Below are positions 5,560 to 56,061 of a stretch of 64,000 nt of DNA, one piece after another; the first letter of the stretch is position 1, and the number at the start of each line of letters is the position of its first letter. The position numbers and the translations under genes are program-made. Location: NCBI GenBank assembly GCA_000004695.1, contig CM000152.2:1952001-2016000 (forward strand), written 5' to 3'. Under the pieces are notes generated by a model. The model had not been told where the DNA came from and made no database searches. It saw only the letters and a list, made by a program, of their open reading frames with translations. Origin of the DNA: Dictyostelium discoideum. Taxonomy: Eukaryota.

Positions 5560-6694
5560 TCGAAATATATAAAATTAAGTTATAACTATGAAAATATTCC
5601 AGATATACAAATTACTAATGGTGAAAATGATGTTATTTTTAAATATGTTTTTAAAAATGGTAGGGACAAGAATAAACAACCTTCAAATTTATCTTTAGTT
5701 TGTTGGAATTGGTTTCAATTAAATTCAAAGCTATTCTATAAAATAGGAAAAATAAAAATTAAACAGAAAACATTTAATAATATTTTATTTTATCACGAAT
5801 ATCTTCCATATAATAGAAACATTAGAAACAAGACCACCTTTTACTCTCCAATCAAATCTCAATTTCAAGGAAAAAAAGAAGAAATTGATTCAACCAAATT
5901 TTCAAAATATAAATTATTAAATTTTAATTATGTTCAAAGTGTAAATTCATATCTACTTCCATTAGAATCAATATTTAAAACTTTTAAAAATATTAAACAA
6001 ATAAAATTATCACTATTCTTACTTCCAATTGAAATTGTATTAGATAGTATAAAAACAATTTTAAAATATCAAACAAAAAATGAACTTTCATTTTATTTAG
6101 AATATGAAACTAAAAAACTACCAGATTCAGTGGATTCATTAATTATGGAGGAATCCACTAGTAAAGAATTTTATTATTGTGATTATTTACTATTTAAAGC
6201 ACCAAACATTTATAAACAAAAAATGTTTAGACAATTGAAATTTATCGAGTTAATGAATCCAATAAAATTACATCTAAAATCATCACATCATTCTTTTACA
6301 AAAGAATTTTTCAATGGTTGCAATACATTGAAAAGCTTTATTTTTGGTGGTGATTTTTTGGAATTACAATCTTTAAATATGGCAATTGAATCATCAAGTT
6401 TAATAGAAACCATTAAAGCAAAGTTCTTATTTCATGATTTACATTATCATTTAGAAGATCCAACGTTTGTTAATGGAACTCAATTAGAACCACTATATCG
6501 ATTCATTTCCATGTAGTTACTATAAACCTGAAGTACCTTATGATTATTCATTTACAAACTATTTCAATCATTTTAAACGACTTTGTGAAAATCTTAAAAA
6601 TACTAAAACTTTAAAACATTTGAATTTAAATAATTATTGTTATAAACCAATTTCAAGATGTAAAATTAGATCCAAACCAAATAATAATAATAGA

Positions 6695-13449: not shown

Positions 13450-16400
13450 ATGGATGGTAATAATAATAATAATATTAATAATTATTGTAATAATGAAAAA
13501 CTTTTTTTCAGAGTTTTTCATAATGTTTATATTAGAAATTTAATATTTCATCACCTAAGAACAATGGAGATTGAATTTAAAGAAAATAAAAATTATATTG
13601 GTAATAGAGTCCCATTCAAATTTATGTGTTTAGGAAAAATATCAAAAACAAATCAATGGCCATTATTAATATATAAATTAAATTCAATTAAAAATAATGA
13701 ATCACAACAAGAACAACAAGAACAAGAACAACAAGAACAACTAGAACAACAACAATCACAAGAAGAAGAAAATAAATTTGAAGAATTAATAATTTCAAAA
13801 AAGTGTTTTTATTCATTTATTAAAAATGTAAATGATGAAACAATAATTGAACTATTATTTGAAAAGAGATTAAATCAAATTTTAAAACAATATCAACTCT
13901 ATTCAAATAAATTCTTGGAAATGTTATTTAAAAACTATCTTCCAAATAATGATTGTACATTTATGAGATATTATTTAAATGATGGTATATTATATAATGG
14001 TAATGGTAATGGTAGTGGTAATGGTAGTGGTGGTGGTAGTAGTAGTACTAGCAATTATAAACAAGAGAAGGAATTAATAAAATCACAAATTCTTAATAGG
14101 AGAAAGGAAGCCTTACTTCGTTACTTTATTTTACATTCAAAGAGTATCAAAGATATCGAGTTTTTAGATAATTTATTAAAAGATCAACAATTTAAAGATT
14201 CATTTTTAGTAGAAATTCAAAAATTAGTTAAAGAAATAACATATAATCTTGAAAGAAATCCATTGAAATATGGAGGTTTAGGATTGGATTATATTATTGA
14301 AAATGATTATATCAATTCACAAAATATCAATGAAATAGACCTAAGATCATTATTAATTTATTTAATTAAATGGTCATCAGTACACATTAATAAAAATAAA
14401 ATCAGTCATTCAAGATCTTTAAAAAATTTAAAATCAATTTTAAATAAATTTGGTGAATCAAAAGGTATAAATGAGTCAGTATTAAAAACAACAATTTTAG
14501 AAAACTGTGTAACTTATAATAATCTTCAAGTTGCTAAAAGTTTAATTGAACAATCTTCAACAACAACAACACCATCAACAACAATAACTATTTCACCAAA
14601 TATTGATGATTTAGTATTTCTAATTAAGTTTAGTAAAAACTGTTCAGTGGATACCACTTCATTTTTAAGTTTATTCTTATCAAATAAAAGTCAATTAATT
14701 GATAAACCGATGGATGTATATGAAAGTTTATTTGAAATTTCAATTAATTCAATTGGAAAAAGAACTCTTTTACTTCAAATACTTTTAGATTCAAATATCT
14801 ATAGATGTAATGAACCAATAATTAAATTTCAATCATTTATTGACCACTTTAATGAAGATCAAAAAATTGAAATCGCAACTAAAAAATTAATTCAAATAAT
14901 TGATGAACAAACTATGAATAATCATATTAAAGAAATTTTAAACAATGGTGGTTATTATCAAGATCAATTATTCTCAAAAAGTTTTGAAATTTATTTAAAT
15001 TATCATTTCAATGAATCAAATTATATTGGTGTCAATACATTTAATGAAAAAGATTTCAATTATAATAATAATAATAATAATAATGATAATAATGAAATTA
15101 AATCTGAAGAAGATACAAATTTCATTAGACAATTATTTTTAATTAAAATGTTGGAAAGAGATGATTTTGAAACTATTAAATTAAAATTAACAAATGTTAA
15201 ACCAGGTTCAATAGTAGCATCAACAATAGTTAATTTAATATTTGATTTACTTAAAGTAAAGAAAAGTTTTACAAAAAATTTAAAACCAATCTTATCAAAT
15301 TACCAACAATTGAAATGGTTAATTGATTTTGATCTACATTCAAATAAAATCATAACATTATCAACAACATGTTTTGAATCAATAGATTGTCATTTATTTA
15401 CAATGGACGAAAAAATGGATTTAATTAATAGAATTTTGAAATTAAAGAAATCAACAACTATTACAACTTATAATTATGAAGTTTTACCAATACCAGATAC
15501 AAACACTACTACCACCACTGTCACCACCACTGCCACCACTGATATTGCAAATGATGAAACTTCAAATAAGATTACCACTGGTGATGATACTTCAGCAGCA
15601 ACAACCAATAAAACAACTGGTATTCCTTGTAAAACAAAGAATGAACCAATTCTTCCAATTTCAATTAAATCGGGAGCAGTTTTAGCATCTACAACTACTA
15701 AAGAAATTCAATTGATAAGTGGAGATTCAATAATTCCTATTTTATATCCATTTGAATTTAATGATTATGAAAATGATTGTATGCAATTCTTTAATAGATT
15801 TCAAAGTATTTCAACTAGTCCAAGTAATTTAGCATTGATTGTAAAGAGTTTTATTCATTTAAATGCAACACCAAATTGTGATATAAGTTACTTTCAACAA
15901 ATTAAAAATGAAATAATTAAAAACCCAAATTTAACATCTTGTTTTCATACAATGAGAGTTAATGGTAAATGTTTATGTTGTAATGAGCCTGGAAACATTA
16001 GATTTAAAAAAGTACTCAATCCAAATATTACAATTGACAAAATTAATTCATTCATTAAAGATTTAAAAGAAATAATACTTGAATTGATTTCTTTTGAAAT
16101 TTATGGTAACTTTAATCAATTAAATAATAATAGCAATAATGTTATTCCAGAGAAATATAAATTCACATTATTAGAAGCAATGTTTGTATTTATAAATGAT
16201 CAATCAATTTTAAAAACAGCCTTATTAGAAGATTCAACATCAATTCATTTAAATGCTTCAATTTTATCAAGTTATATTTCAAAATTAACTTGGGAAACTC
16301 ATTGGGATCTATTTGAACTTATCATTAAAAATCATAAAGAATTTAATTTAGATTTAAAGAAAATTAATCCATTTTCAATTTTAGAACAAACTATTAAATT

Positions 16401-17859
16401 AGATTCACCATTTAAAATCATTCAACTTTTAATTGATTTTATAAATGATTCAATTTATAATAATAATAATAATAATAACAATAATAATAATAATTTTGGT
16501 AATGATAATATTAATAATAATAATGGATTATTTAAACAACTTTCATATCAATCAGTTGATACTTTATTAAAAAAGAAACCAATTAACTCAATAAGAAATG
16601 CATTTAAATTATTATTATTAAATTATAAGTTATTCGATTGGAAAGATGAATTAATTTCACCATTATCATTCTCGACAATAATAAATGATCTAGAAAGTGG
16701 CAATGAAATTCAAGATGAAACTTTAAAAAGTTTATTTAGAAATTATAAAAAAAATTTATTTTCTCGAAACCCAAAAAAATCTAAATTTATGAATGATCTT
16801 GAAATGCAAGAATTAACTGAAGATTTAGGAAAAATGAAAATGGATCCATCTTTAATTGGAGGTATTGCTGATAAAAATATTCAAACCACTACCACCACCA
16901 ATAATAATAATAATAACAGTAATATTAATAATAATCACAATGATAACAGTGGTAATAATAATAATAATAATAATATAAAGATTGCAAGTTTATTTGATAA
17001 TAGTGCCAATAGTAGTACTAGCAGTACCATTTCAAAAAATAAATCTTCACCATTATCAAATAAGAAGAAAATTCCAACAAAAACTAATTCAAATTCTCAA
17101 AATTTTAATTTTAATTTTAATTCTTCACCAACAACAACAACATCAACAACAGCATCTTTCACTTTTTCTCCATTCTCTTCCAATTCTCCTATTTCCTCCC
17201 CTTTTTCTACTCCCTCATCTCCATTTGATTTCAATAAATCAACAACATCTGCAACTTCGACAGAAGCAACTTCATCTACATTTAATTTCAATTTATTACC
17301 AGCAACAACAACAACAATATCACCAAATAAAACAACAACAACAACAACATCGCCATTTAATTTCAATTTATTATCAACACCAGAAAAATCCAACTCTCCT
17401 TTTAAAAGTACTTTGACTTTTTCACCATCACCATCATCACCCTCGCTATTACTTTCAAATTCATCAGCTCCATTAATTTCATCCACAGTTCAACCACCAC
17501 CTCCAATATCATCACCATCATCAATTACTAACATAAATGAATCACCTTTAAAAATAACAAAAAATATTCCAAAAGAAAGATTTGATTTATTAATTAACAA
17601 TTTAATAACTAAAGGAAAATTATTTAAAGCAAGGGAATATATTTTAAAATACAGTGATCATAAGTTTGATTTAGTTAAAATTAGTTATGAACATGCAAAA
17701 AAAATAGTCAAATATTGTGAAAAAGACATTGTGGAAATCTTTAAGAAATATTTCAGTCTATCTAAATACCAAAAAACCATCTTGGTCGATATTACCAAAG
17801 AAAGAAGAAAGGATTTAATTCCTCTTTTTGTTGATTTCGCTCAAGAAAAAAAAAAATAG
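13450..17859 (+). CDS. Large (1469 aa) protein of unknown function, apparently single exon. Poly-N/Q tracts and a Ser/Thr/Pro-rich tail
   Basis: Uninterrupted ORF. ATG in AAAATGG context. No recognisable catalytic motif. Confidence 0.6.
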   Translation: MDGNNNNNINNYCNNEKLFFRVFHNVYIRNLIFHHLRTMEIEFKENKNYIGNRVPFKFMCLGKISKTNQWPLLIYKLNSIKNNESQQEQQEQEQQEQLEQQQSQEEENKFEELIISKKCFYSFIKNVNDETIIELLFEKRLNQILKQYQLYSNKFLEMLFKNYLPNNDCTFMRYYLNDGILYNGNGNGSGNGSGGGSSSTSNYKQEKELIKSQILNRRKEALLRYFILHSKSIKDIEFLDNLLKDQQFKDSFLVEIQKLVKEITYNLERNPLKYGGLGLDYIIENDYINSQNINEIDLRSLLIYLIKWSSVHINKNKISHSRSLKNLKSILNKFGESKGINESVLKTTILENCVTYNNLQVAKSLIEQSSTTTTPSTTITISPNIDDLVFLIKFSKNCSVDTTSFLSLFLSNKSQLIDKPMDVYESLFEISINSIGKRTLLLQILLDSNIYRCNEPIIKFQSFIDHFNEDQKIEIATKKLIQIIDEQTMNNHIKEILNNGGYYQDQLFSKSFEIYLNYHFNESNYIGVNTFNEKDFNYNNNNNNNDNNEIKSEEDTNFIRQLFLIKMLERDDFETIKLKLTNVKPGSIVASTIVNLIFDLLKVKKSFTKNLKPILSNYQQLKWLIDFDLHSNKIITLSTTCFESIDCHLFTMDEKMDLINRILKLKKSTTITTYNYEVLPIPDTNTTTTTVTTTATTDIANDETSNKITTGDDTSAATTNKTTGIPCKTKNEPILPISIKSGAVLASTTTKEIQLISGDSIIPILYPFEFNDYENDCMQFFNRFQSISTSPSNLALIVKSFIHLNATPNCDISYFQQIKNEIIKNPNLTSCFHTMRVNGKCLCCNEPGNIRFKKVLNPNITIDKINSFIKDLKEIILELISFEIYGNFNQLNNNSNNVIPEKYKFTLLEAMFVFINDQSILKTALLEDSTSIHLNASILSSYISKLTWETHWDLFELIIKNHKEFNLDLKKINPFSILEQTIKLDSPFKIIQLLIDFINDSIYNNNNNNNNNNNNFGNDNINNNNGLFKQLSYQSVDTLLKKKPINSIRNAFKLLLLNYKLFDWKDELISPLSFSTIINDLESGNEIQDETLKSLFRNYKKNLFSRNPKKSKFMNDLEMQELTEDLGKMKMDPSLIGGIADKNIQTTTTTNNNNNNSNINNNHNDNSGNNNNNNNIKIASLFDNSANSSTSSTISKNKSSPLSNKKKIPTKTNSNSQNFNFNFNSSPTTTTSTTASFTFSPFSSNSPISSPFSTPSSPFDFNKSTTSATSTEATSSTFNFNLLPATTTTISPNKTTTTTTSPFNFNLLSTPEKSNSPFKSTLTFSPSPSSPSLLLSNSSAPLISSTVQPPPPISSPSSITNINESPLKITKNIPKERFDLLINNLITKGKLFKAREYILKYSDHKFDLVKISYEHAKKIVKYCEKDIVEIFKKYFSLSKYQKTILVDITKERRKDLIPLFVDFAQEKKK

Positions 17860-18654: not shown

Positions 18655-19995
18655 AGTCCAAGTAATATTCCACCAATTGTTGAAACCATTCCATTCATCG
18701 GATGTTTTTATCAATTTGCAAAGAATCCATTACAATTAGTTCGTAATAGTTATGATAGATTAGGTGAAATTTTCACACTCCATTTAATGGGATTCAAAAT
18801 GACATTTGTTCTTGGACCAGAGGCACAAGCATTATTTTTCCGTGGTACCGATGAAGAACTCTCACCAAAGGAAGCTTATAGATTTGTAACACCAGTATTT
18901 GGTAAAGGTGTTGTCTATGATAGTGAAACAGAGATTATGTATGAACAACTTCGTTTCGTAAAGAATGGTTTAGTTTTATCACAATTGAAGAAAGCAGTTG
19001 GTATCATTCAAGAAGAGACTGAAAAATATTTCGAAACTAAATGGGGTGATTCAGGTGAAATCGATCTTTTATATGAAATGAATAAACTTACCATTCTCAC
19101 TGCATCTCGTTGTCTTATGGGTAAATCAATCAATAAATCATTGGGTCAATCAGGTCAACTCGCTGACTTGTACCACGAATTGGAAGAAGGTCTCAATCCA
19201 ATTTCATTCTTTTTCCCAAATCTCCCATTACCATCATTCAAAAAGAGAGACGCTGCCCGTGCTAAAGTCGCCGCCATTTTCCACTCTATCATTCAAGAAC
19301 GTAGACGTTCAACTGACGATAGTGTCGATGATGTCCTCTACACCCTCATGAACTCCAAATACAAAGATGGTTCAGTCCTCGAAGATGAACAAATCGTTGG
19401 TCTCATGATTGGTTTATTATTCGCCGGTCAACATACCTCTTCAATCACCCTTACTTACACCATTTTCTACCTCCTCAACAATTTAGAATATTTCGATGAA
19501 ACTCAAAAGGATATCAATGATATCGTTCAAAAAGAGAATCAAGGCGAAATCAATTTCGATGGTCTCAAGAGAATGAATCGTTTGGAAACTGTAATTCGTG
19601 AAGTTCTTCGTCTTCATCCACCTTTAATTTTCCTCATGAGAAAAGTTATGACTCCAATGGAATACAAAGGTAAAACTATCCCAGCCGGTCACATCCTTGC
19701 TGTTTCACCACAAGTAGGTATGCGTTTACCAACTGTCTACAAGAACCCAGATAGTTTTGAACCAAAACGTTTCGATGTTGAAGATAAAACTCCATTCAGT
19801 TTCATTGCTTTCGGTGGTGGTAAACATGGTTGTCCAGGTGAAAATTTCGGTATCCTCCAAATTAAAACCATTTGGACTGTTCTCTCCACTAAATATAATT
19901 TAGAAGTTGGTCCAGTTCCACCAACTGATTTCACTTCTTTAGTTGCTGGTCCAAAAGGTCCATGTATGGTTAAATATTCAAAGAAACAAAAATAA
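18655..19995 (+). CDS. cyp51: CYP51 exon 2. Contains the conserved [20 protein letters not shown]-helix, ETLRLHPP and the heme-binding [14 protein letters not shown]
   Basis: Strong collinear similarity to human or fungal CYP51 across the whole exon. Confidence 0.9.
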
Positions 19996-22082: not shown

Positions 22083-22288
22083 TAAATATTTGTATTGGTA
22101 AAGAATGGCATAGATATCCATCAAATTTCTTTTTACCAAATGATAATAATGAAATTGAATTTAATCTTAAATTTATAGAATCTGATTTTAAGGGTCATTT
22201 ACCAAAACCATTTTCAACATTACCAAATGGAACTGCAATTATTCCAACAAATATGAATGATCAAAACAAACAAGAATTTGATAGATAT
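22083..22288 (+). CDS. alg9: ALG9 exon 5 VNICIGKEWHRYPSNFFLPNDNNEIEFNLKFIESDFKGHLPKPF...
   Basis: Matches human VNVCVGKEWYRFPSSFLLP...RGQLPKPF. GTAAGC donor. Confidence 0.8.
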
Positions 22289-40602: not shown

Positions 40603-40645
<43 letters not shown>

Positions 40646-40859: not shown

Positions 40860-41246
40860 ATTGTAATTTACAGATTTCCATTTATTTATTTATTTATTTA
40901 TTTGTTTTATCTTATTTTATTTTTAAATAAAAAAAAACTTTTTTTTTCTTTTTTTTTTTTTTTTTCCAGGTTTTTATTTTATTCTATTTTTAGCAAAGAT
41001 ATTAAAAATCCCAATTGATGGACAATTTTTTGTTTGTTGGTTGGTTACTTTTTTTAAACTATTGTTATGGTTATTATAACCATTTTTATAGTCATTGATA
41101 TTATTTTTATTATTATCGTTATTACCATAAAACTACCATATGGCCTATTATTTCTATTATTACATGGAACGATTTCTTCAGAATGTTCATAATCTTCACC
41201 AAATTCAATTGAGTCATCTTCATAAATTTGATTATTATTATTATTA

Positions 41247-41298
<52 letters not shown>

Positions 41299-41463: not shown

Positions 41464-41506
<43 letters not shown>

Positions 41507-43247: not shown

Positions 43248-43696
43248 ATTATTTCTTTTCTTTTTTTTATTTATTTATTTTTATTTTCTCAAAATATTTA
43301 AATAATACCTTTTGGGTTTTTTTTTTTTTTTTTTTTTTTTTGTTATTATTATTTTATTATTATGTTTTTTTTTTTTTTTTTTCTTTAGAAATAAAAAAAA
43401 TTTTATTTATATTTAATTTACAACAATTTATTAATATATATTTATATTATTTTTTTTTTTTTTAGTTTCTTTCCTTCTCTATCTATATCTCTATCTATCT
43501 CTATTCCTTTTCTTTTAAAAAAAAAACTATTAATTCAATTTACGCATAGAATTTTAAAATATGTGCTATTGTATCAATTATTTTTTAATTTATATATTTT
43601 TTTTATTTTATTTTATTGTGATATTACTTTGAAAAAAGTTTGTTGTTGGGTATCAATAAGTGAATTTGTGTGAAAAAAAAAGAAAAAAAAAAAAAG

Positions 43697-43775: not shown

Positions 43776-43958
43776 TTTTAATTTAATTAAATTTAATTTT
43801 TTTTTTTTTTTTTGGGTAAAAATTTTAAGTGATAGGGTTTTCAAATTCAGTGAAAAAAATTTACAGACTTATTTTTATTTTTAGATTTTTTTTTTTTTTT
43901 TTTTTTCCAGGACTTATTTTTTTTTTTCCAGATTTTTATTTTTTTTTTTTATTTTATT

Positions 43959-44369
43959 TTATGCACATATATTAAAAATACTCATTGATGGACGATTTTG
44001 TGTTTGTTGGTTTGGTTTCTTTCTTTTTAAACTATTGTTATGGTTATTTGGGTTATTGCTATTGTTTTTATTATTATTATAATTATTACCAATAAAATTA
44101 CCAATAAAATTACCATATGGTCTATTATTTCTATTATTACATGGAACGATTTCTTCAGAATGTTCATAATCTTCACCGAATTCAATTGAGTCATCTTCAT
44201 AAATTTGATTATTATTACTATTAGTATTATTATTCTTTGAAGAGACATTACAATTTTTCTTTGATGGTTGATGATGATGATCTAATTCTTCAAAAGAAGC
44301 AGCAGTCATTGCTAATGCATCAAGTAAATCCAAACCAGATGGTGATGATTGTACAATTTTTGAATTTGA

Positions 44370-44453
<84 letters not shown>

Positions 44454-46148
44454 GGTTGGTTTATTATTCATATTTACATTTTTGTTATTGTTATTATTAT
44501 TATTAATTAAACTACCCTTTGAATAAGATAATGATGATAGTATATTTGAATTATTATCTTTTTTCATAACATTATCAATTAAACTATTAATTGATTGAAC
44601 AAAACTATTATTACTATTTACAGATGATGGTGATGATGTAGATGTGGTGGTTGTGGTGGTTGTAGTTGTGATTTGTTTTTTATTACAGTTGTTGTTTTGA
44701 TTTAAGAAATGAGATGATGATGATGAGGAAGATAATAATGAAGAGGATGACAATGATGAAGATGATTCAAAATCATAAGCACTATTAAAATTTAAAACTG
44801 GTGAAGAATGAGCACTACCATTAATAACACTATTATGCAAATCTCTTTTTGGAGAGTTTATTGGTGAAATGGATGGAACGTCATCAGAAATAATACTTGA
44901 AACTGATGGTGATGAATAAGAAGCATAAGATGTTTTTGGTGTATTTTGTTGGGATGGTGATGGTGATTGAGATTGAGTATGGAAATGATCTTTTTTAAAT
45001 CTTTTATTATTTTGATTAATATTGGTATAATTATTATTATTATTATAATTTATTGGTTGTTCATCATCTACAATCTCGACATCTTCTTGTTCATCATCAG
45101 ATTCATAATAATAATTTTGATGTTGTTTAATTTGTTGTTTTTGTTGTTGTAGTTGTTTAACTTGTTGATGAGATTGAGATTGGGATTGGGATTGTTGTTG
45201 TTGTTGTTGTTGTAATTTATATTGTTGTAATTGTTGTTGTTGATTATTATTCATAATTTTTTGATATTGTTTTGAATTTGATAATGATTGGAAAACCAAA
45301 ACATTTGATTGTGGATAATGAAATTCATTTTTTAAATGACCCATTTCAATTAGGAAACCAATGGCAGAAAAGAAAATTGTTATAAGATTTAAATTTCCAA
45401 TTGGATTTTCAATCCATTTACCAACGATAGTTTGATAATCTGGTGTTTTAAAGTAACCACTTGATGAAGGTTCATTGATATTATTCAATTGTTGTTGTTG
45501 TGAAAATAATGGAAACATTAAACAAGTTTGCCAAATTCTCTTTTTTTGTTGTTTTGATAATTTAATAATAGTTGGTAACCAATAATTAATCAATGCCAAT
45601 TGTTGAATAGTTGAAGAATATGAGTATCCCCATAATGATGATGTTATCATTATATTTGATAAAATTGAATTATTATTATTATTATTTTCAGATGATGATG
45701 ATGATGTATCTGGTGAAGTATTTTTTAAAATATTTTCATTTTTTTTAATTAATTTTGAAATTGATTTTTCTAATAATTGAATACTGTGATAATTTATGAA
45801 ATCTTTATTTATTATTAATGATTGGAAAAATGGTGTAAATTTATTTGTACAATTTTGTTGGTCGGTTGGATTATTTATATTATTATTATTATTTATATTT
45901 ATATTTATATTATTATTTATATTTAAATTTGCTTTTTTAATTGATTGTCTATAATATTCTTTCCAAATTAAATTTCTTACAGATGGAGAGCATTGGTCAA
46001 TTTGTTCAACTAATGTTTCAACATTCTCAATCATTTTTAAATTATCTTTGAAAGATTCCTCTTTTTCAAAATCATATTCTTCATCAACTTCATCAACTAA
46101 TGAATTTGAATTTAAGGATGGAACATTATCTTCAAAATTATTATTCAT
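43959..46148 (-). CDS. Large (729 aa) Gln/Asn-rich protein of unknown function, single exon
   Basis: Uninterrupted ORF with ATG. Its 3' end is the source of the duplicated fragment at 40860..41390. Confidence 0.6.
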
Positions 46149-46459
46149 TTTATTTTTATTTATTTTTATTTATTTATTTTTATTTATTTATTTAATAATT
46201 TGTATTTATTGTATTTGTCGGATTTAGTTATTACTATTTAAAATAATTTGTTTTTTTTTTTTTTTTTTTTTTTTTAATTATATATGTAAAATTTTGAGTT
46301 AGTATTTTATGATTTTAATTTAATAAAATTTTAAAAAGAATGATTCTTTTTTTTTTTTAATTTATATTTTTTTTTTTTTAATTTATATTTTTTTTTTTAA
46401 TTTTTTAATTTAATTTCACAAAAAAAAAAAAAGTGTAAAAAAGAAAAAAATATTTTTTT

Positions 46460-46502
<43 letters not shown>

Positions 46503-46947
46503 CTTTAAAAAAAAATCTAATTCGTGTTCTTCGGGTGAAACCCTAATTAATTTAAAATGAAAGCGTAGAAATCAACAATTTTTCTTTTTTCTTTTTTCTT
46601 TTTTTGTGATTTTTTTTTTTTTTTTAAAATAATTTTTTTTAAAACATCAATTTTGATTTAATTTTTATTTTAATTTGATTTTATTTTAATTTTATTTATT
46701 TTTTTATTTTTTATTTTAAAAACAAAATGATTACCTTATTTTCAAGCAAATAAATTTATTTGAAATAAAAAAAAGAAAAAAAAAAAAAAAAATAATTTAA
46801 AGAAAAAAGAAAAAAATAAAAAAATAAAAAATAAAAAATAAAAAATAAAAAAAAAAACCTTTTTTATAACAACACCAAAAAATTGATATTTTTTTTTTTT
46901 TCTTCTTGATTTAAATTATATTTTGTTAGCAAAATCAAATAAAAAAA

Positions 46948-46969
46948 CAGTGTGCTGGAATTCGCCCTT
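46948..46969 (+). other. 22-nt exact match (CAGTGTGCTGGAATTCGCCCTT) to the pCR-TOPO/pCR2.1 cloning-site flank
   Basis: A GC-rich 22-mer inside a >90% AT intergenic region. Identical to the vector sequence ...CCAGTGTGCTGGAATTCGCCCTT|insert. Confidence 0.7.
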
Positions 46970-48408
46970 ACAAAAAACTTTTAACCTCCATTTTTTTTTT
47001 TTTCTTTACATGAAAAAAAAAATAATATAAATAAAAATAAAAAAAAAACAGATATTTTAAAAAAAAGAGAGAAAAAAAAAAAAAAAGAAAAAACATTGTG
47101 AGTTAAATAATTAACTCTACATATGGGCAATGAAAAAATAAAAATTAAATAAAAATTATTTTTTCAACTTACAATTTACTTTTTTTTTGATATTTTTATT
47201 ATTTAATTAATTTTTTTTTTTTTTTTTTTTTATTTTTTATGAGATTTAAAAATATATTTATATATTTATTATTTATTTATTTATTTTTTAAAAAATGTAT
47301 TTATACAAGGAACTATTTTACTTTCTTTATTAAATTAAAAAAGAATTGATTTTTTTTTTTTTACAAAGTTTATTTTATATTAAAAAAATTTAATATGGAA
47401 AAAATAATATAAAAAAAAAAAAAAATTAAATAAGAATTTATTTTTATTTTTTTTTTATTTTTTTTTTTAATATATTTTTCTATATTCGAGATGTGATACT
47501 AAAATCATTAAATATTTGAAGTATTTTTGTGATGTTTTTTTTTTTTTTTTTTTTCCTCAAAGGATTCAATAATTACACATCAAAATATATATCAAACACA
47601 CAAACACTGTGTGTTTTATTAATTTCAAAGTTTTGTTTTATTTTTTTTTCTTTTTCCATTAGGAAAAGGGAGTAGTTGATTTTAAAGTGTGGGTAATTAA
47701 AGTAACAAAACAAAAAGATTGTGTTAAAAATAGGGGGTAATTAACATTGAGATTTTAATCCCATTTAAAATAATTTGTGATTATTTCCAGATTTTCTGAA
47801 AAAAAAAAAAAAAAAAAAAATACACAAAATATCAAAAAATATCTATTAATTTTTTTTTTTCATCCAATTTTTTTTTTTATTTATATAAAATCAACAAATT
47901 TCTTTTAATTTTATTTTTTATTTATTTTTTTTTATTTTTTAAAAAAGTTTGTTTATTTTAAGTATTTCCATTTTTGTTAATTTTTTTATCATCTCCTAAA
48001 ATTATTATAATATATTATTATTAAAAGAAAAAAAAAAAAAAAAAAATCAAAAATTATATTTTTAACATCACATCTGAAAATTGATATTTTTAGAACCAAC
48101 ACATGAAAATATAATAATAAAAAAAAATTAAAAAAAAAATGATTGATTTTATAAATTATTATTATTATTAATATTTTTGATTTTTTTCTTTTTCTTTGAT
48201 TTTATTTTTTTTTCTTTTAAAAAAAAAAAAATATACTTATTATTTTTATTATTTATTGACCCTTTTTTTTTTTTTCATTGATCGTCACCCCTTTATCTAT
48301 CATTTATTTTAATCTTTTTTTTTCCTGTTTTTTATTTTTTTTTTTTTATTTTTTTTTTTTATTTTTTTTTAACAATGAACAGTTGGTATCAAGAAAAAAA
48401 AAAAAATT

Positions 48409-48478
48409 TTAAAAAAATAATAAAAATAATAAAAATAATAAAAATAATAAGAATAATAAAAATAATAAAAATAAAAAA
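48409..48478. repeat. 12-bp tandem repeat (AATAATAAAAAT)n, about 6 units, intergenic
   Basis: Seen in sequence. Confidence 0.8.
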
Positions 48479-48721
48479 TTTGTAAAATGTAAAATGTAAA
48501 AAAAAAAAAAAAATAAAAAATTAATCTCATTGTTGTTTTGTGTTTAAAGTTTTGTGTTTTTTTTTTTTTTTTAATAATTTTTTATTATTATTATTATTTT
48601 TCTTATTATTTTCTTTTTGAAAAAGAGTTTATAAAATCTAATTTTAATTATTTTTTTTTTTTTATTTTTTTTTTTATCTTTTTTTTTTTATTTTTTAATT
48701 TATAATATTTTTGATTTAAAT

Positions 48722-48826
48722 TTATTTTTTTGATTTTTTTTTAGATTCTTCTTTCTTTTTCATTATAAAATCTTGTTTATCTTTAATTGAAACTGGTTTG
48801 ATAAAAGTACCTGGCATAACAGAAAC
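48722..48826 (-). CDS. utp14: UTP14 exon 3 VSVMPGTFIKPVSIKDKQDFIMKKKEESKKKSKK*
   Basis: TAATAAAAG acceptor. Matches yeast ...RIMTKPGQVIDPLKAPFK C-terminus. Confidence 0.7.
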   Translation of the reverse strand, partial: VSVMPGTFIKPVSIKDKQDFIMKKKEESKKKSKK

Positions 48827-49202
48827 CTTTTATTATAAAATAAAGAAAAAAAAAAGAATAAAGTAAAAGTTTTGTTAATAAAAATGATATATCACAACCA
48901 ACATCTTAAAAAGTGTCGCTCCATTGTTTTTTTTTTTTTTTTTTTTTGAGAATTTTATTTTTTTTTTTTTTTTTTTTCCTTTTTACATGAGGGAGGGGTG
49001 AATAAATCACTCTCACTCTCACTCTCAAATAATTACAAAAAAAAAAAAAATAAAAAATAATAAAAAATAAAATATCTGGAAATGAAAAATGTTTGTAAAA
49101 ATGAAAAAAATAAAAAAAATATCTGGAAATGAAAAATGATTGTAAAAATAAAAATAAAATAAAAAAATATAAATTAAATAAATATAATAAATTTATACAT
49201 AC

Positions 49203-56023: not shown

Positions 56024-56061
<38 letters not shown>

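Follow-up and report, generated by a model that had tools for sequence, protein, structure and literature searches.

How does a 22-nt sequence of 59% GC come to lie in an intergenic stretch of Dictyostelium discoideum DNA that is otherwise about 90% AT? The sequence in question, CAGTGTGCTGGAATTCGCCCTT, is present as a single copy on the plus strand of the 64,000 nt that we analysed as one window (assembly GCA_000004695.1, contig CM000152.2, positions 1,952,001 to 2,016,000), as follows both from direct reading and from a pattern search of both strands that allowed up to three mismatches. The DNA of this window is nuclear and extremely AT-rich, and its ORFs are rich in poly-Asn/Gln. The site itself falls in an intergenic stretch of 2.6 kb with about 90% AT and T runs of 23-38 nt, and the repeats around it belong to low-complexity A/T families only. 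While 13 of the 22 nucleotides are G or C, the GC content of 200-bp windows around positions 46948-46969 is 7.5-18%, and that of positions 46201-47500 is 10.5% once the 22-mer is left out. At the base composition of the window, the probability of an exact CAGTGTGCTGGAATTCGCCCTT is 2.7e-16 per position, and about 1e-8 to 2e-8 chance copies are expected per 34-Mb genome, counting both strands (2 x 34 Mb); at local composition, the probability per position is as low as 1.9e-19. Furthermore, a pattern search with up to three mismatches returned no copy in 100 dinucleotide-preserving shuffles. A preliminary description of this locus, which was made from the letters alone, had drawn attention to the GC-rich string within very AT-rich DNA and had dismissed a chance match, and these figures bear out both points.

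The genes on either side of the site, together with the features discussed below, are listed in Table 1. The 729-aa ORF encodes a low-complexity protein for which the sole homologue returned was a 34%-identical protein of Cavenderia fasciculata, the candidate list being swamped by poly-Asn words. No tRNAs were found in the window, there was no match to Rfam within 46100-48950, and three proteins of the window were absent from the protein-cluster collection that we searched. For the 729-aa and 1147-aa ORFs, records exist in two contigs, each longer than 1 Mb, while the 1469-aa product of a single ORF (13450-17859, plus strand) is recorded as a called product for the new assembly alone (one contig); presumably, the older annotation models the gene of this ORF differently. 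In addition, two segments of about 290 nt each in neighbouring genes, 40971-41257 and 43941-44234, are about 85% similar. Both are AAT-rich parts that code for poly-Asn. The similarity most likely reflects low-complexity codon repeats instead of a duplication.

Table 1. Features at and around the 22-mer, in coordinates of the window
Feature	Position	Strand	Remarks
729-aa ORF	43959-46148	-	remnant lies about 800 bp upstream of the ORF start
Seven-substitution cluster	46678..46792	.	at 46678, 46707, 46716, 46746, 46755, 46760 and 46792, relative to the independent assembly
Vector-derived 22-mer CAGTGTGCTGGAATTCGCCCTT	46948..46969	+	left polylinker arm; overwrites native TAAAATAAAATAAAAAATATCA
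Spurious EcoRI site GAATTC	46958..46963	.	due to the vector remnant in the reference; direct reading
Start of cloned PCR insert, presumed primer ACAAAAAACTTTTAACCTCCATTTTT...	46970..46995	+	end coordinate is a guess; primer is our interpretation
Utp14-family gene, 3' end	stop near 48720	-	projected from the independent assembly; on the other side of the remnant

So what is this 22-mer? Judged by its letters, CAGTGTGCTGGAATTCGCCCTT is the left (M13-reverse/SP6) polylinker arm beside the insertion site of the pCR2.1/pCRII/Blunt-II-TOPO vectors, and its parts are a partial BstXI site, an EcoRI site and the CCCTT end used by topoisomerase. We take this arm to be common to pCR2.1-TOPO, pCRII-TOPO, pCR-Blunt II-TOPO and pCR-XL-TOPO, and we excluded pCR4-TOPO as a source on the basis that it presumably carries GTTTAAACGAATTCGCCCTT instead. 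The arm of the older, non-TOPO TA vectors ends in GAATTCGGCTT, which makes GCCCTT diagnostic for the TOPO versions, and non-TOPO pCRII/pCR2.1 was excluded as the source for the same reason. One such non-TOPO relative is found in the Vibrio plasmid record NC_020451.1, where an SP6 promoter is accompanied by a polylinker ending in ...GAATTCGGCTT. In the window, the left context reads ...aaataaaaaaa, followed by CAGTGTGCTGGAATTCGCCCTT and then by acaaaaaactttt... Directly 5' of the 22-mer there is an A where the vector has a C, and the identity with the vector is therefore exactly 22 nt. The right junction reads ...GAATTCGCCCTT and continues with acaaaaaac..., such that the CCCTT junction marks the end of the match and non-vector DNA follows directly.

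Both published primers and engineered genomes agree with this assignment. A primer described as "with homology to pCRII-TOPO" starts with GTAACGGCCGCCAGTGTGCTGGAATTCGCCCTT (PMC12366255), and in Gibson assembly of a TOPO-derived plasmid, ccgccagtgtgctggaattcgccctt has served as homology arm, with aagggcgaattccagcacac as the reverse (PMC6279351). Among 5,426 complete E. coli genomes, which we searched with a 43-mer of the vector arm, five chromosomes, those of LY180 and four other strains, contain a 100% identical 42-mer, GATCCACTAGTAACGGCCGCCAGTGTGCTGGAATTCGCCCTT, that includes the 22-mer. In LY180, the one that we inspected, this 42-mer is located at the engineered frd locus, adjoining a foreign glycosyl hydrolase gene, and the cloned fragment starts directly after CCCTT. 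Conversely, a search of 596 Gb of bacterial and archaeal sequence, in which each of 185,579 species was represented by a single genome, returned no exact match to the 22-mer, and the 2.9 million viral contigs of IMG/VR contain none either. As such, the 22-mer is a synthetic sequence and not a natural one, and the earlier identification of it as the pCR2.1/pCRII-TOPO sequence next to the insert agrees with both publications and with the 42-mer of the LY180 type.

Our searches of the Vibrio plasmids touched on a related matter. In NC_020451.1, a plasmid of Vibrio coralliilyticus, the SP6 promoter and the pCRII non-TOPO polylinker occupy positions of about 19016-19111 (2440-2535 of the extracted locus L002), in the order HindIII-KpnI-SacI-BamHI-SpeI-BstXI-EcoRI-GGCTT, and no feature is annotated there. 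This record, although deposited as natural, represents either an engineered construct or vector contamination. A similar match to this polylinker is present in the V. anguillarum plasmid NZ_CP034674.1.

Whether the vector bases belong to the genome of the organism can be judged from an independent assembly of the same locus. For this comparison we used the chromosome-scale assembly GCA_054883475.1, in which the locus (L001) was found on the 6.43-Mb chromosome record CM142509.1 by means of the neighbouring 729-aa protein. The 22-mer has no match in L001, even when up to three mismatches are allowed. The unique flanks TTGTTAGCAAAATCAAATAAAAAAA and ACAAAAAACTTTTAACC each occur once in the window and once in L001, and between these identical flanks the window has the vector 22-mer, whereas L001 has TAAAATAAAATAAAAAATATCA, which is also exactly 22 nt long (9188-9209 of L001, at about 2084974-2084995 of CM142509.1). 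Vector and native sequence agree by chance at four of the 22 positions, which leaves 18 wrong bases at 46948-46969, and from position 46970 onwards the native sequence resumes, identical to the independent assembly. The vector bases thus replace native bases in register, 22 for 22, and nothing is inserted. The flank followed by CAGTGTGCTGG is the version of the junction that bears the remnant, the native version having TAAAATAAAATAAAAAATATCA there, and GAATTC is absent from the native 22 nt. No displaced copy of the native 31-mer was found elsewhere in the window, and our repeat analysis around the site revealed no duplication at the junction. Furthermore, L001 as a whole (22,190 nt) aligns with positions 33915-56169 of the window in a single block of 22,258 alignment columns at 99.58% identity. 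Since the flanks are collinear over 22 kb, the clone boundary conceals neither a misjoin nor a gap.

This comparison sharpens the preliminary description in several respects. It had named the presence of the 22-mer at the same place in other assemblies as the observation that would speak against it; an independent chromosome-scale assembly lacks the 22-mer at this very locus and has 22 native nucleotides there, which favours an assembly artefact over genuine DNA, as had been proposed. The suspicion of an adjacent misjoin or gap, however, has to be given up in view of the single alignment over 22 kb. Residual vector embedded in an AT-rich desert was an apt description inasmuch as a vector remnant is concerned, but the remnant does not add bases to the desert, as it stands in the place of TAAAATAAAATAAAAAATATCA. 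As to the provenance of the independent assembly, Nanopore and Illumina de novo assemblies that include AX2-214 have been described (PMC12745789), which are a possible source of GCA_054883475.1, and our literature search found no mention of either GCA_054883475 or CM142509. Exact-product look-ups of the adjacent small ORFs (49 aa, 35 aa and 36 aa) did not provide a third sequence of the site.

An integrated plasmid or transgene would bring extra vector sequence, be it the rest of the polylinker, the backbone or the second arm, and a net gain in length over the empty site. The window has neither of these, with 22 nt standing for 22 nt. The longer left arm, including the upstream GCCGC/SpeI/BamHI part, and the right-hand arm AAGGGCGAATTCTGCAG... 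were both without a match in the window at up to three mismatches, and GAATTCGCCCTT occurs only once when both strands of the window are counted. A scan for shared 11-mers with common polylinkers and primers returned just two isolated 12-nt matches besides the remnant. These matches, ATCCACTAGTAA and AGATATCCATCA, correspond to other parts of pCR polylinkers and are located at 6153-6164 and 22112-22123 in ordinary coding-like sequence; by our own estimate from base composition, we judge them to be at chance level. A single vector arm without further vector sequence anywhere in the window fits the clipped end of a read and not an integrated plasmid.

Given the identity with the vector, the single arm and its end at the cloning junction, the in-register replacement, the collinear flanks and the absence from the independent assembly, we put the probability at about 95% that the 22-mer is an unclipped remnant of a pCR-TOPO-type vector on one or more Sanger reads of a PCR clone, made during finishing of this AT-rich region, and not part of the genome of the organism. 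In TOPO vectors, the insert starts directly after CCCTT, as is also the case at the LY180 locus (L003). With the 22-mer in this orientation, the insert extends to the right from position 46970, 3' of the vector bases. The type of clone (finishing or gap-closure PCR), its clipping history and the primer are our interpretation. A PCR product with its left primer starting at 46970 would have been TOPO-cloned during finishing of a region hostile to shotgun sequencing, and the clone would then have been read from the M13-reverse/SP6 side of the vector. Quality clipping would have removed the poor first bases of this read and left 22 vector bases, possibly too short for the vector screen, which would have been stacked in register on the true sequence during assembly. 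For the vector bases to have stayed in register, both flanks must have been anchored by at least one further read across the junction, and the consensus caller may have preferred the higher-quality or more numerous bases of the clone read over those of a weaker shotgun read. In VecScreen, an internal exact match of 22 nt scores 22, and the weakest internal category covers scores of 23-24. The VecScreen check proposed in the preliminary description would thus probably miss the remnant, by a single point, which would account for its persistence in the deposited sequence. Our literature search returned no report of gap closure or of vector contamination for the D. discoideum genome. The earlier proposal of residual vector from a gap-closing PCR clone is thus upheld for the vector remnant, which GCA_054883475.1 lacks, while the gap-closing purpose is a matter of interpretation.

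The remaining differences between the two assemblies are informative about the surroundings of the remnant. Apart from the 22-mer, they are of two kinds, namely changes in homopolymer length and 11 single-base substitutions in 22,255 aligned bases. Eight of these 11 substitutions fall within the 310 bp of 46678-46987, for which a binomial test against the 22 kb of L001 as the baseline gives P = 2e-13, or 3e-10 when only sequence below 18% GC is counted. Because this interval was chosen post hoc these P values overstate the significance, but the excess is still clear. The other substitutions in the 22 kb are those at 43291, 43294 and 47657 only, which indicates that the strains behind the two sequences are identical or very close relatives. 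The local excess suggests, short of proof, a low-confidence, thinly covered and hand-finished patch. The left-hand cluster of seven differences (Table 1) possibly represents low-quality sequence of the reference next to the finished patch and would fit a poor read tail, although it may also reflect true polymorphism or mistakes in the other assembly. These differences are densest at a distance of 150-270 bp from the remnant instead of directly next to it, which a simple model leaves unexplained. At position 46987, which is base 18 of the presumed insert, the window has T where the independent assembly has A; this would fit a primer designed from imperfect draft sequence, or a polymerase error that became fixed in the clone. 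With regard to homopolymers, the window is the longer of the two in 68 of the 71 indel columns, with runs that differ by 1-8 nt (for example, 40610-40617, 41464-41471, 46463-46468 and 56026-56032). Such length differences could stem from homopolymer compression by long reads in the other assembly, from slippage in the Sanger reads of the window, or from true variation in run length.

We must however take into account that a TOPO arm may have reached this position by other ways. An artefact of the same class could have arisen if another cloned PCR fragment had been incorporated into the assembly, for example one from the re-sequencing of a low-quality stretch, from inverse PCR or flank rescue, or from a genomic clone submitted by the community. 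The sequence is silent on why the PCR product was made, and the in-register replacement implies that another read spanned the junction, which leaves no room for a gap at precisely this point. On the other hand, 2.6 kb of about 90% AT with long T runs is typical of regions that have poor shotgun coverage and become finishing targets, and just one end of the clone is visible. We therefore consider these routes a less likely source of the clone than finishing, though one to be reckoned with. Far less probable is that the sequenced stock truly carries a patch of 22 bp from a TOPO clone, for instance through an unnoticed transformation or a gene-conversion-like event from a PCR clone. The comparison assembly may be of AX2-214 or another isolate, for which absence there does not amount to formal proof. 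Yet an integrating plasmid brings in kilobases and does not neatly exchange 22 bases up to the TOPO CCCTT junction. The exchange at this site is exactly 22 for 22 and leaves the length unchanged; there is neither a second arm nor any further vector sequence or target duplication, and the flanks are otherwise nearly identical in both assemblies. The preliminary description had likewise rated a genuine insertion as much less likely, and the lack of extra vector sequence and of any gain in length, along with the native 22 nt in the other assembly, argues in its favour.

Could the error instead lie with GCA_054883475.1, which would have lost or mis-polished 22 bases while the window is correct? 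That assembly does have its own error modes, as its homopolymers are systematically shorter (68 versus 3 indel columns). Nevertheless, its 22 nt are of the ordinary, local AT-rich type and of exactly the same length, long-read errors do not turn a vector string of 59% GC into TAAAATAAAATAAAAAATATCA, and the version in the window is a known synthetic sequence, which together make this explanation hardly credible. The least probable of all is a natural sequence that equals the vector arm by chance, or a conserved GC-rich regulatory element in an AT-rich promoter region. The position of the 22-mer upstream of the 729-aa ORF would suit such an element, since GC-rich promoter islands can be functional. 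However, its absence from the orthologous position in the independent assembly effectively refutes this idea, which is further opposed by an expectation of about 2e-8 per genome, by the lack of exact matches in the 596 Gb of prokaryotic genomes and in IMG/VR and of any Rfam match around the site, and by an end that coincides precisely with the engineered EcoRI-GCCCTT junction. A vector remnant from a finishing clone thus accounts best for what is seen here.

How does this remnant compare with known cases? Like the short vector and adaptor remnants in public assemblies at which UniVec/VecScreen and the FCS-adaptor tool of NCBI are aimed, it is synthetic polylinker in a deposited chromosome, and like these it represents an unclipped read end that begins or ends exactly at a cloning junction. 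In contrast to them, it is internal, has a length of only 22 nt and replaces native bases, instead of adding extra length or capping a contig. With the left arm of pCR2.1-TOPO, pCRII-TOPO and pCR-Blunt II-TOPO it shares 22/22 identity, the CCCTT end and the foreign DNA that comes next, but only the last 22 nt of that arm are present, the GCCGC/SpeI/BamHI part and the right arm being absent. The TOPO scars of engineered strains, such as that at the frd locus of E. coli LY180, have the same sequence and adjoin a cloned fragment as well. The LY180 scar, however, is physically part of the chromosome, includes at least 42 nt of polylinker and stems from deliberate construction, whereas the sequence described here exists in the assembly only.

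The feature in the window is a sequencing or finishing artefact without a biological message, and its consequences are for those who use the reference. Positions 46948-46969 should be corrected to TAAAATAAAATAAAAAATATCA, and 46678-46987 needs re-examination, as some 300 bp may be of low confidence. Until then, every resequenced strain will show the site of the remnant as a shared "variant". Moreover, vector remnants below the detection threshold do survive in the assembly, and a genome-wide scan for strings anchored at the cloning junction (GAATTCGCCCTT, AAGGGCGAATTC) would be worthwhile. For the biology of the locus itself, the remnant places a false EcoRI site and a false "island" of 59% GC about 800 bp upstream of a gene in the reference, and in scans for motifs, promoters, primers or guide RNAs this island could pass for a regulatory element.
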